DNA of 64,000 nt from a virus (Duplodnaviria > Caudoviricetes). Location of the stretch: the IMG/VR virus record IMGVR_UViG_3300025137_005045. One strand, written 5' to 3'. Position 1 is the first letter of the stretch, and every line of letters starts with the position of its first letter. Below the pieces are notes generated by a model. That model saw only the letters and a list, made by a program, of their open reading frames with translations, did no database searches and had not been told where the DNA came from. Both the position numbers and the translations under genes were made by a program. This document shows positions 20,706-21,590 of this stretch, piece after piece.

Positions 20706-21149
20706 TTGTCATACGAAAATCCCTGGATGTATCAGGATAAAATCTTTGATACAGAAGACATCGGAGAGATGTATGGATTCGTTTATAGAATTACAAATAC
20801 CACTAACGGGCACGACTACATCGGAAAGAAATTTTTCTGGACAGTAAAGAAACGCCCTCCACTGAAAGGCAAGAAAAATAAAAGAAGATCAACTGTTGAA
20901 ACGGACTGGAAGACCTACTGGGGATCTAGTGACCGTTTGACCCACGATATAGAAGAACTAGGTAAGGATAACTTTACAAGAGAAATAATCTACTTGTGTA
21001 AAGCAAGAGGTGAAACAAATTACATGGAAGCCTATTTCCAGTTTAATGAAAATGTATTACTACGTGATGACAATTACAACGGTATTATAAACATAAGACT
21101 TGGTATAGGTAGTGTAAGAAATATTTTAATAGAAGATTTAACGAAATAA
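20706..21149 (+). CDS. Stand-alone GIY-YIG nuclease-family protein (147 aa, TTG start)
   Basis: GFVYRITNTTNGHDYIGKK, then DWKTYWGSS, NFTREII, YMEAY and YNG. AAAGGA lies 6 nt before TTG 20706, so this start is better supported than the ORF-track start at 20586. Confidence 0.75.
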   Translation: MSYENPWMYQDKIFDTEDIGEMYGFVYRITNTTNGHDYIGKKFFWTVKKRPPLKGKKNKRRSTVETDWKTYWGSSDRLTHDIEELGKDNFTREIIYLCKARGETNYMEAYFQFNENVLLRDDNYNGIINIRLGIGSVRNILIEDLTK

Positions 21150-21590
21150 CAGCCACTGATGCGGAGTATTCTCCGTGTCCTATGAGGAGATTGTAGTTTA
21201 CTAACTGCAAGGAACGTGTAGATCAAACTGCACACAGGACGGCACGCAACAAATTTAATGGTTAAAACCTAAAAGATGTAGGCTCTGAGAAAAAGCAACC
21301 TACGTGCATTTGATAATTGGCTAATTACGGTTATCAAAGCATCCGCCAGATGAAGCTAGAATAGGGGGTACCGGCTGACCGCCTCCGTGTAGCAATACAA
21401 TTTCTTTTAATTAGTATGACTCCGTACTCGGATAATGTGTATTGGAAATACTTTGCCTAGGCATAGGTGAAGTATGACTGATATCTGGATAATACGCGAA
21501 AGACTTACTGTTAAAAAACAGTTTATATACTATCTAATTTAGAAAAGAACTTCGAGCGTAAGCGAAGAAGTAGATGTCAAAGACATCTTA
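21150..21590 (+). ncRNA. Candidate large structured non-coding RNA (family unassigned)
   Basis: No ORF in the track; at least 10 hairpins, many with G-U pairs that work only on the + strand, plus a GNRA tetraloop (see findings). Confidence 0.65.

Follow-up and report, generated by a model that had tools for sequence, protein, structure and literature searches.

We propose that a small GIY-YIG nuclease gene and the structured RNA that follows it in a phage genome are two separate genes, neighbours of long standing that close an operon at its 3' end, and that an orphan RNA is co-transcribed there beside a DNA nuclease. We give this reading about an even chance of being correct. Both genes lie on the plus strand of the window, by which we mean the whole 64,000-nucleotide stretch of DNA that was analysed. 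The nuclease gene (20706..21149, TTG start, TAA stop at 21147-21149) encodes a stand-alone protein of 147 aa that belongs to PF19835 and PHROG 447, and the non-coding RNA of about 440 nt extends from 21150 to about 21590 (nhmmer envelope 21145-21603).

Several lines of evidence support the existence of the RNA. Between 21150 and about 21590, ORFs reaching 60 aa are absent both from the window and from 23 close relatives, and the RNA is kept in 23/23 protein relatives with at least 66% identity. The plus strand folds better than its shuffled versions (z -3.8, 0/100 shuffles as good), which is not the case to a comparable degree for the minus strand (z -1.4). Covariation was assessed in 72 sequences less than 93% identical to one another. 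In this set, 40 consensus pairs are paired in 96.9% of cases, as opposed to 40.2-47.6% when the partners are slid by 1-3 columns, and compensatory changes are present at 28 of the 40. The covariation score was 0.499, compared to 0.052-0.087 in the slid controls, and 0/500 shuffles attained the observed value. G-U pairs are invariant (72/72) at two positions, indicating that the RNA is read from the plus strand. A preliminary description of this DNA had placed a structured RNA right behind the stop codon of the nuclease gene, and covariation now backs this claim: the first pairs, GCC at 21152-21154 with GGC at 21241-21243 (GTC/GAC in relatives), begin 3 nt past the TAA.

The RNA starts with a 5' domain (21150..21243, plus strand), in which a closing helix (21152-21154/21241-21243) surrounds three hairpins at 21161-21176, 21191-21210 and 21216-21233 that exhibit compensatory changes in the alignments of relatives. 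When alifold was run on 27 relatives of type A, the type of the window, with the window itself left out, 5/5 and 5/6 pairs covaried in hairpins of this domain, which is the most lineage-specific portion of the RNA. It is followed on the same strand by a core hairpin (21279-21282/21299-21302, plus two inner pairs) with double changes at 3/4 pairs and 97.9% of cells paired, and by the long-range helix CTAATTA/TAATTAG (21320-21327/21408-21415), with double changes at 8/8 pairs. The 5' strand of this long-range helix is at the same time the loop of a local hairpin at about 21311-21336, the stem of which is present in the folds and in the alifold consensus; the RNA therefore likely holds a pseudoknot at this point. 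Between the two strands of the helix lies a near-invariant core motif of 33 nt, CTAGARTARGGRGTACMGGNNNACCGCYTCYGT (21356..21388, plus strand), containing a hairpin (21364-21369/21381-21386) that is paired in 100% of the 72 sequences and has two covarying pairs. Further downstream are two similar boxes, discussed below, separated by a hairpin (21451-21458/21465-21472, plus strand) with double changes at 5/8 pairs and 96.5% of cells paired. The 3' end of the RNA consists of an A/T-rich linker (21498..21548) and two plus-strand hairpins. The first (21550-21553/21567-21570; double changes at 4/4 pairs) has an inner GC stem and a GNRA-type loop, GAGCGTAAGCGA; the second (21572-21578/21582-21588; double changes at 2/2 pairs) is followed by TTAAAT and is conserved in the alignments of relatives.

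The linker is the sole segment of the RNA that could be considered guide-like. It varies in both sequence and length, with a mean top-base frequency of 0.24-0.48 and 28-56% gaps in its columns, and it measures 20-83 nt in 65 relatives. Such a range of lengths is unlike a guide, and a fixed-length variable guide next to a conserved scaffold was not found in the RNA family. Both points tell against the suggestion that the RNA might serve as a guide.

Exact IUPAC matches to the core motif occur in at least 120 IMG/VR stretches (about 270 estimated), and none was found in one genome per species from 185,579 prokaryote species. Three variants of the RNA were used as blastn queries against 50,697 GenBank phage records, with no match. 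Full-text literature searches yielded no description of the RNA or of a GIY-YIG ribonucleoprotein; PMC10690425, part of which reports over ten thousand candidate viral RNAs, may list the RNA unnamed in its supplements.

The two genes were next considered in their genomic setting, which is that of an uncultured giant T4-like water phage. A sigma70-type promoter-like site (TTGACA-16-TATAAT, 15014..15041, plus strand, 12/12 consensus matches) heads a series of plus-strand genes: a gp55-like late sigma factor gene (15071-16006; PHROG 12791, E 1.4e-77), a gp47/SbcD-like gene (16030-17046; PHROG 100, E 4.6e-56; Pfam Metallophos), a gp46/SbcC-Rad50-like gene (17057-18826; PHROG 77, E 3.3e-100; Pfam AAA_23), and two radical-SAM/SPASM genes (18786-19676 and 19676-20689; Pfam Radical_SAM, E 2.9e-11 and 5.5e-05). 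The promoter consensus and the identity of these genes agree with the earlier assignment of the locus to one sigma70-driven operon with gp55, gp47 and gp46. The slot between gp46 and the nuclease is variable, and in relatives it contains 0-2 ORFs of the radical-SAM/SPASM type or a dCMP deaminase. The early operon would thus be arranged as sigma70 promoter, gp55, gp47, gp46, variable ORFs, small nuclease and RNA. A gp46-like gene was found upstream of 37/64 RNA loci compared to 0/48 RNA-less loci, and a baseplate-hub gene downstream of 40/64 compared to 0/48; since these neighbours are confined to RNA loci, the block represents lineage synteny. No tRNA or tmRNA genes were found in the window.

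No promoter-like site was detected on the plus strand of 20300-22200, and thus none between the nuclease gene and the RNA. This, together with the gap of 3 nt, suggests that the two are co-transcribed: the RNA would be made by read-through of the operon and would end at the two 3' hairpins. In four metatranscriptome runs, Logan contigs of relatives (80-99% likeness) overlap portions of both the gene and the RNA; such contigs carry no transcript ends, strand or level, may stem from DNA carry-over, and bins that they leave uncovered are uninformative. One 98-nt contig from an RNA library bridges the junction of stop codon and RNA (21120-21216). A rival reading takes the RNA to be simply a cis-acting 3' UTR element, which would protect the message from exonucleases, terminate transcription or insulate it from the convergent late genes, or cleave itself. 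The RNA is always located at the very end of the operon, opposite convergent genes, it abuts the last ORF whichever ORF that is, and it terminates in two hairpins. However, an RNA of about 440 nt, with its near-invariant core, its long-range helix and boxes changing together, goes far beyond the needs of a stabiliser or terminator. The scan called no terminator on the plus strand, the second 3' hairpin included, and models of self-cleaving ribozymes were unmatched even at E up to 10. A terminator-like hairpin with a T-run at 21664..21685 is on the minus strand and belongs to the convergent gene at 21705-22091. We consider a 3' UTR element very unlikely.

The nuclease itself is well defined. 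Its residues 7-123 match Pfam PF19835 (SegE_GIY-YIG) with E 1.7e-38 and 132.1 bits (cut-off 25), and along its whole length it matches PHROG 447, over 129/148 family positions (E 4.3e-43). Among the residues invariant across 36 aligned sequences are Y27, Y38, G40, R92, E108 and N125, which, by the roles known from I-TevI, we take to be the catalytic residues: the tyrosine of GIY, the tyrosine and glycine of YIG, and the arginine, glutamate and asparagine. An AlphaFold2 model built on the 36-sequence alignment has a mean pLDDT of 91.3. In a VIA comparison, the closest fold is the I-TevI catalytic domain (1ln0; Z 8.3, rmsd 2.6, 82 aligned), followed by the N-terminal part of the PD-T4-3 restriction endonuclease (Z 7.1), the N-terminal domain of UvrC (Z 5.0) and T4 EndoII (Z 4.9, rmsd 3.5). 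All of these are DNA nucleases, and we count them in favour of a DNA nuclease. The top Foldseek match is likewise 1ln0/1mk0 (E 0.024), and a search of PDB chains by sequence gave no match at E up to 10. The protein carries a basic stretch, KKRPPLKGKKNKRR, modelled by AlphaFold2 as a beta-hairpin with strands at 45-50 and 60-65. Profile, model and basic stretch thus agree with the preliminary description of a minimal catalytic GIY-YIG domain with a basic insert, and its further statement that a C-terminal DNA-recognition module is lacking holds as well, with a single Pfam domain in 147 aa. Neither Pfam nor PHROG found a separate DNA-recognition domain behind the catalytic one. By contrast, the basic insert could not be upheld as a feature specific for RNA: relatives that lack the RNA have it just as well, as illustrated by KPPLKGRKNKRR in phage Melnitz.

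Kinship with I-TevI invites the view that these are selfish, free-standing nuclease genes residing beside an RNA gene, whose conserved counterpart they would cut in rival phages, much as SegB is located in the tRNA cluster of T4. PHROG homing-endonuclease families do match the protein (E 1e-17 to 4e-07), a near-invariant DNA word of 33 nt lies about 200 bp away, the same intergenic slot is used by two nuclease families in at least three lineages, and in Melnitz and C48C1 the GIY-YIG gene has a different location, behind nrd genes. On the other hand, the homing-endonuclease PHROGs (284-574 positions) align over about 80-110 positions only (9-117/356, 163-261/574, 1-79/284), while PHROG 447 is a full-length family of 148 positions, fitting a protein of 147 aa that has no DNA-binding module. 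There are no empty sites and no RNA loci devoid of a nuclease (0/89), hence no sporadic presence and absence. The gene is single-copy in the 132-kb record to which the window belongs, as is the nuclease gene in each of five records, and no pseudogenised copies were noticed. Homing is for these reasons distinctly unlikely in our estimate.

The preliminary description had proposed that nuclease and RNA form a ribonucleoprotein, and the association was therefore surveyed from both sides. On the RNA side, 89 loci had enough upstream DNA, and in every one of them the same strand carries a small stand-alone nuclease gene no more than 1.4 kb upstream. In 82 this gene directly borders the RNA; it encodes a GIY-YIG protein in 72 and PDDEXK_15 in 10. 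The latter is a PD-(D/E)XK enzyme unrelated to GIY-YIG, from PHROG 244, labelled 'RusA-like Holliday junction resolvase'. In the remaining seven loci a GIY-YIG gene is located 533-1383 nt before the core motif. In six of these, an additional ORF of 265-388 aa, radical-SAM or unknown, intervenes and abuts the RNA; in the seventh, L137, the gap contains no ORF. The two nuclease types are single-copy and mutually exclusive in 5/5 large records: three (G000, G006, G007) have one GIY-YIG and no PDDEXK_15 gene, and in two (G001, G002) the situation is reversed. An Endonuclease_7 gene is present in one of these five records, all incomplete; this is G002, of the PDDEXK type, which may weaken the case for a resolvase-like role of the small nuclease. 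On the protein side, tblastn found the nuclease in 500 of 50,697 GenBank phage records, the RNA is present beside 23 of its best 80 IMG/VR relatives, and it is absent from 48/112 judged unique GIY-YIG homologues. The preliminary description had itself held that homologues usually lacking the RNA would speak against a ribonucleoprotein, and we count these numbers in that sense. Co-occurrence is thus complete when viewed from the RNA and partial when viewed from the protein.

Quick, midpoint-rooted trees (SH-aLRT or FastTree) are informative on the history of this association. In the tree of RNA cores, PDDEXK-linked RNAs occupy at least four separate basal positions, two GIY-YIG-linked groups form separate clades, and the RNA of L120, linked to GIY-YIG, is sister to those of L109 and L127, linked to PDDEXK. 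This layout suggests that the RNA was kept through at least three nuclease swaps. In the GIY-YIG tree, RNA-bearing proteins form two clades (36 and 27 rows, 99% SH-aLRT each) among RNA-less clades, and Melnitz, without the RNA, is sister to L120, which has it.

Are the RNA and the nuclease nevertheless partners, with the RNA scaffolding, regulating or inhibiting the small nuclease encoded ahead of it, of whatever kind? A slot refilled by nucleases of two folds and never emptied, at 89/89 loci and abutting in 82, speaks for such a partnership, as do the 3-nt gap without a promoter-like site and, weakly, the contig from the RNA library over 21120-21216. Against it, the nuclease family does without the RNA in most lineages, its basic insert is not linked to the RNA, a single RNA would need to serve two unrelated folds, six of the seven loci with a distant GIY-YIG gene tolerate an ORF in between, and there is no fixed-length guide. 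An obligate pairing of protein and RNA is contradicted by the 48/112 homologues without the RNA and by its occurrence beside PDDEXK_15. What stands of the ribonucleoprotein proposal is therefore the tight link seen from the RNA and the lack of an intervening promoter; what tells against it are the swaps, the inserted ORFs and the RNA-less homologues. We judge such a partnership, a looser form of the ribonucleoprotein proposal, unlikely.

The twin boxes bear directly on this question. Box 1, CTCGGATAATG (21427..21437), and box 2, TCTGGATAATA (21484..21494), both on the plus strand, have three variable positions each, which mirror one another: they are identical in 68, 67 and 67 of 72 sequences, with mutual information (MI) of 0.79, 0.78 and 0.62 bits, compared to at most 0.44 for the next best column. 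The boxes thus mutate in concert, staying identical rather than complementary. A pairing of 6 bp between them is possible in most sequences; it was rejected as the cause of this covariation, since variants such as L091 break the pairing and keep the boxes identical. A search for targets of the boxes or the linker in the phage's own 132-kb record found nothing beyond chance, the linker matching elsewhere over 12-16 nt only, and the box 2 11-mer has three exact copies there, in unrelated contexts. Boxes co-varying as identity fit a symmetric partner and would suit a dimeric protein; GIY-YIG enzymes of the EndoII type and PD-(D/E)XK enzymes of the resolvase type are oligomers. The identical loops could hold a nuclease dimer, silence it, or steer it to DNA processed by gp46/gp47. 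However, eight combinations of box states alternate inside both GIY-YIG clades, and across the clades no column of the GIY-YIG alignment tracks them (best MI 0.23, 0.42 and 0.38 of about 1 bit). A single protein column in GIY-YIG clade B is in perfect step with position 2 of the boxes (MI 1.0, 23 sequences), which may be due to phylogeny. The specific version in which the RNA serves the operon's small nuclease, of either fold, as a cofactor and the co-evolving loops dock a nuclease dimer, seems to us rather improbable. If true, it would amount to an RNA-controlled DNA endonuclease, off until needed or targeted, that partners the gp46/gp47 recombination nuclease: a ribonucleoprotein nuclease of a kind undescribed for GIY-YIG or PD-(D/E)XK enzymes.

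We therefore return to two separate neighbouring genes as the preferred reading. The nuclease would be a DNA endonuclease composed of the catalytic domain and the basic beta-hairpin. Most likely it would cut DNA in a structure- or context-dependent manner, in recombination, replication or packaging, since it follows the Mre11/Rad50-type gp47/gp46 and is replaced by a PHROG 244 enzyme in sister lineages. The RNA would have a role independent of any particular nuclease and may bind one partner in two copies, or a single symmetric one, as suggested by the near-invariant core, the long-range helix with its probable pseudoknot, and the concerted boxes in twin hairpin loops. Several points count against this reading. 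The nuclease slot was refilled at least three times and never lost (0/89), which neighbourhood alone would not predict; an RNA that begins 3 nt past the stop codon probably shares one transcript with the nuclease mRNA; and the twin boxes would suit a dimeric protein partner.

Among known systems, I-TevI and the T4 Seg proteins share with the nuclease the GIY-YIG fold, the SegE_GIY-YIG domain and the T4-like phage setting, but the nuclease has no linker or C-terminal DNA-binding domains and is single-copy and fixed in its lineage. T4 endonuclease II (DenA, 2wsh) is of similar size (a 134-residue chain), consists of the catalytic domain alone and is also phage-encoded, although the structural match is weak, as given above, and no sequence match to PDB exists. 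In T4, denA is located just behind the nrd genes, a placement resembled by the nrd-adjacent relatives in Melnitz and C48C1. The order of nuclease ORF and structured RNA on the same strand recalls TnpB/IscB with their omega-RNA, and HEARO. The present locus, however, lacks RuvC and HNH domains, a guide of fixed length and any match to HEARO, and its RNA also accompanies an unrelated nuclease fold.

As regards the RNA, Rfam gave nothing at the gathering score and chance-level matches alone at E up to 10. A group I or II intron, RNase P and 6S RNA were discarded, with no Rfam support and no split host gene. RF01718 (Polynucleobacter-1) has no match in 20500-21800 of the window at E up to 10, and its gathering score (37 bits) is reached by 4/20 related loci, L091, L100, L154 and L187 (39.2 and 38.5 bits). 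In that one sublineage the whole 141-position model corresponds to the 5' domain, and it extends over no more than the first third of the RNA; the other 300 nt or so, with the core, both boxes and the 3' hairpins, are absent from Rfam. A pattern derived from the RF01718 consensus (17 specified bases and a variable gap) was too loose to be of use: the RNA profile recognises 0 among the 120 matches listed, which are chance occurrences in unrelated phyla. Part of Weinberg et al. (2010, PMC2864571) describes Polynucleobacter-1 from Burkholderiales, in fresh water or estuary. That habitat fits, and, on the same partial account, both are orphan motifs of unknown function. The motif was rated there as probably cis-regulatory, whereas the present RNA belongs to phages and closes an operon at its 3' end. 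An element catalogued in 2010 at 141 nt is thus, in phages, a mere 5' domain of a much larger RNA.

GOLLD and ROOL, and also OLE, as portrayed in part of Kretsch et al. (2025, PMC12286853), are likewise several hundred nt long, with many covarying helices, phage-encoded and of unknown function. The Rfam models of GOLLD, ROOL, OLE and HEARO match neither the window region (E up to 10) nor six related loci (E up to 0.5). Unlike that set, the present RNA invariably follows a nuclease gene, and no tRNA gene was found in the window. Among orphan RNAs of aquatic phages, this one is on the larger and better-supported side, and two of its features lend themselves to functional hypotheses: its fixed place behind a nuclease at the end of a recombination-nuclease operon, and its concerted boxes. 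If it controls the nuclease, the two would constitute a new kind of RNA-protein nuclease; otherwise, the RNA joins GOLLD and ROOL.

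Directly 3' of the 147-aa GIY-YIG nuclease ORF (20706-21149, + strand), in a stretch free of ORFs, lies a structured RNA that extends from 21150 to about 21590 on the + strand. The fold z-score of the region is -3.8 on the + strand, compared with -1.4 on the - strand. An ORF-free segment of 400-550 bases is kept in all 23 protein relatives of at least 66% identity, and the RNA is recognised there by blastn and nhmmer. The phage is T4-like, and its source record in IMG/VR measures 132,418 bp (CheckV completeness 36%). Among the large virus records, CheckV completeness was 36% at 132 kb (G000), 80% at 289 kb (G006) and 71% at 250 kb (G002), which implies genomes of roughly 350 kb; the RNA-bearing T4-like phages would therefore be jumbo phages.

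In the window, a perfect sigma70-type promoter (15014-15041, +, 12 of 12 consensus matches) precedes a + strand series of genes encoding a gp55-like late sigma factor (15071-16006), a gp47/SbcD-like protein (16030-17046), a gp46/SbcC-Rad50-like protein (17057-18826), two radical-SAM/SPASM proteins (18786-19676 and 19676-20689) and the nuclease. Beyond the ORF-free stretch come convergent - strand genes, including a baseplate-hub gene (22882-23721), followed by a + strand portal gene. RNA-library contigs of relatives, in which transcript ends are not visible and DNA carry-over is possible, span the gene and the RNA, one of them across the junction, and weakly suggest that both are expressed.

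To define the RNA, IMG/VR was scanned with its near-invariant 33-nt core motif (21356-21388). At least 120 stretches were found, and about 270 are estimated in the whole collection. Among the 120 listed, 100 have full flanks, 71 of them mutually less than 93% identical; these 71 and the window form the alignment A2. RNAalifold predicted 40 pairs on A2, with compensatory double changes in 28. Paired cells amounted to 96.9%, against 78.5% in shuffles and 40.2-47.6% with slid partners, and the covariation score was 0.499, against 0.175 and 0.052-0.087, respectively; none of 500 shuffles reached the observed score. On the + strand, the 5' domain is closed by a helix (21152-21154 with 21241-21243) enclosing three hairpins, and is followed by a core hairpin (21279-21282 with 21299-21302). 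A long-range helix (21320-21327 with 21408-21415) covaries in 8 of 8 pairs; the loop of a local hairpin supplies its 5' strand, which makes a pseudoknot likely. An invariant hairpin (21364-21369 with 21381-21386), two further hairpins (21388-21391 with 21396-21399; 21451-21458 with 21465-21472), a variable linker (21498-21548) and two 3' hairpins (21550-21570 and 21572-21588) complete the RNA. An RNA this ornate is unlikely to be purely a 3' UTR element. The linker had been considered as a guide-like segment, an idea that loses ground with a linker length of 20-83 nt and no match elsewhere in the 132-kb record.

Two loop motifs on the + strand, box 1 (21427-21437, CTCGGATAATG; A2 columns 457-470) and box 2 (21484-21494, TCTGGATAATA; A2 columns 528-537), are alike, and their three variable positions covary as identity, not complementarity. 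These positions are equal between the boxes in 68, 67 and 67 of the 72 sequences, with mutual information of 0.79, 0.78 and 0.62 bits; every other column stays at or below 0.44. Rare variants (e.g. GACGAA, GUCGAAAG, AUGGGAA) are altered alike in both boxes, and the state was the same in all 54 loci where simple regular expressions located both boxes (8 states in total). Most simply, the two boxes might share one trans partner or have a partner that is itself symmetric. No column of the nuclease alignment tracks the box states overall: across all GIY-YIG clades mutual information peaked at 0.23, 0.42 and 0.38 out of roughly 1 bit, and the one perfect association was confined to clade B, one of the two RNA-linked clades. 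The exact box 2 11-mer has three + strand copies in the 132-kb record (8301-8311, 21484-21494 and 4803 nt before the window start); their flanks are unrelated, so chance or codon usage is the probable cause.

The nuclease matches PF19835 (Pfam, E 1.7e-38) and, over its full length, PHROG 447 (E 4.3e-43), a family evidently mis-annotated as 'NAD synthetase'. Y27, Y38, G40, R92, E108 and N125 do not vary across 36 sequences. A confident AlphaFold2 model (pLDDT 91.3) was matched by VIA-align to the I-TevI catalytic domain (Z 8.3, rmsd 2.6, 82 aligned residues), the N-terminal part of the PD-T4-3 restriction endonuclease (Z 7.1, 2.8, 89), the UvrC N-terminal domain (Z 5.0, 3.7, 77) and T4 EndoII (Z 4.9, 3.5, 83). 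Foldseek agreed weakly with these GIY-YIG fold matches (E 0.024), and a PDB sequence search returned nothing at E up to 10. The preliminary description had taken the protein to be a catalytic domain alone, which holds, as the 147 residues include no second domain. Its proposal that a basic insert binds the RNA fared worse: the stretch, modelled by AlphaFold2 as a beta-hairpin, is equally conserved in RNA-less and RNA-linked homologues.

The 120 listed RNA loci were classed by their upstream gene; 31 had too little upstream DNA, leaving 89 judged. In 72 a GIY-YIG gene lies directly upstream, with 187-394 nt between its end and the core motif; in 7 it lies 533-1383 nt before the motif; and 10 have none despite at least 700 nt of upstream DNA. 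In six of the seven distant cases an ORF of 265-388 aa intervenes; the seventh, locus L137, has a gap without an ORF. The intervening ORF is radical-SAM/SPASM in L113, and those of L150, L132 and L151 matched no Pfam family (E cut-off 0.01). The intervening ORFs of L099 and L150 (265-269 aa), L114 and L132 (337-342 aa) and L151 (306 aa) are conserved, and two pairs are clearly related by eye.

In all ten GIY-YIG-less loci (L091, L100, L109, L111, L116, L121, L127, L130, L145, L154) an ORF of 167-173 aa abuts the RNA, its 3' end roughly 200-300 nt upstream of the core motif. By sequence, its product is identified as a PD-(D/E)XK nuclease: PF24608 PDDEXK_15 matched the three scanned by Pfam (E 6e-24 to 4e-26), tblastn gave E 5e-44 or better in 9 of 10 loci, and the protein corresponds to PHROG 244, labelled 'RusA-like Holliday junction resolvase'. 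With GIY-YIG in 79 loci and PD-(D/E)XK in 10, a small nuclease gene is thus found upstream in 89 of 89. Each of five large records, in searches that included positive controls, carries a single copy of one of these two nuclease genes and lacks the other. The PDDEXK-bearing record G002 also encodes an Endonuclease_7 (T4 gp49-type) domain (C1:243447-243647, +), absent from the other four, incomplete records. A homing-endonuclease role for the GIY-YIG protein is made less likely by three points: no judged RNA locus is an empty site, the gene is single-copy and the protein has no DNA-binding module.

Starting from the protein, the RNA was present at 23 of the 80 best IMG/VR relatives. Among 115 unique homologues it was adjacent in 54, further off in 10 and absent in 48, with flanks too short in 3; in phages Melnitz (54.6% identity) and C48C1 the gene lies behind nrd genes without the RNA. 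The expected co-occurrence is thus upheld from the side of the RNA, by the nuclease upstream of every judged locus, but not from that of the protein, given the 48 RNA-less homologues. A quick IQ-TREE tree places the RNA-linked proteins in two clades of 36 and 27 rows (each 99% SH-aLRT), set apart from one another among RNA-less clades, and the RNA label requires 3 changes, at least 2 of them forced by starred branches. In the RNA core tree (FastTree), RNAs linked to PDDEXK occupy at least four separate basal positions, and the GIY-YIG-linked RNA of L120 is sister to PDDEXK-linked RNAs. These positions indicate at least three nuclease swaps while the RNA was retained.

A gp46-like gene stands immediately before the nuclease, or one or two ORFs earlier, in the 18 RNA loci examined, 11 of which have SMC_N, AAA_23 or Rad50 Pfam matches; the ORFs in between are radical-SAM genes or, in L088, a dCMP deaminase. 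By tblastn, gp46 was detected in 37 of 64 RNA loci vs 0 of 48 RNA-less loci, and a downstream baseplate-hub gene in 40 of 64 vs 0 of 48. These counts point to a conserved unit of gp47, gp46, 0-2 ORFs, the small nuclease, 0-1 ORF and the RNA, facing baseplate genes. The radical-SAM/SPASM genes between gp46 and the nuclease are variably present (window 18786-20689; L113, L135, L085, L096, L131, L092), in L113 such a gene stands between nuclease and RNA, and the L088 dCMP/cytidine deaminase gene (1308-1835, +; PF00383, E 3e-20) precedes GIY-YIG.

The best fit to the data is two neighbouring functions within one transcript, to which we give an even chance. One would be a slot for a DNA nuclease, linked to the recombination nuclease and open to either of two folds, its exact role being inferred; the other would be an orphan RNA functioning independently of any particular nuclease. 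A looser ribonucleoprotein or regulatory link between RNA and nuclease would accommodate a nuclease slot that is never empty, a gap of 3 nt between gene and RNA, and the symmetry of the boxes; we consider it rather improbable.

The window's RNA has no match in Rfam, blastn with three RNA variants found it in no GenBank phage record, the core motif matches no GTDB species representative, and literature searches returned no description of it. The sole gathering-level Rfam match in the window is a freshwater-2 RNA (RF02980; 31889-31976, +; 65.5 bits, gathering score 49.9). In 4 of 20 loci scanned, the full model of RF01718 (Polynucleobacter-1) aligns to the 5' domain, just over the gathering score: L091 (2671-2810, -), L154 (2224-2363, +), L187 (20-151, +) and L100. 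Weinberg et al. (2010; PMC2864571) list Polynucleobacter-1 as probably cis-regulatory and give Burkholderiales and fresh water/estuary as its sources. As the alignment is restricted to the 5' domain, RF01718 would in these phages correspond to the 5'-most third of a larger RNA, and the catalogued 141-nt motif looks like a fragment of an RNA of about 500 nt in that sublineage.
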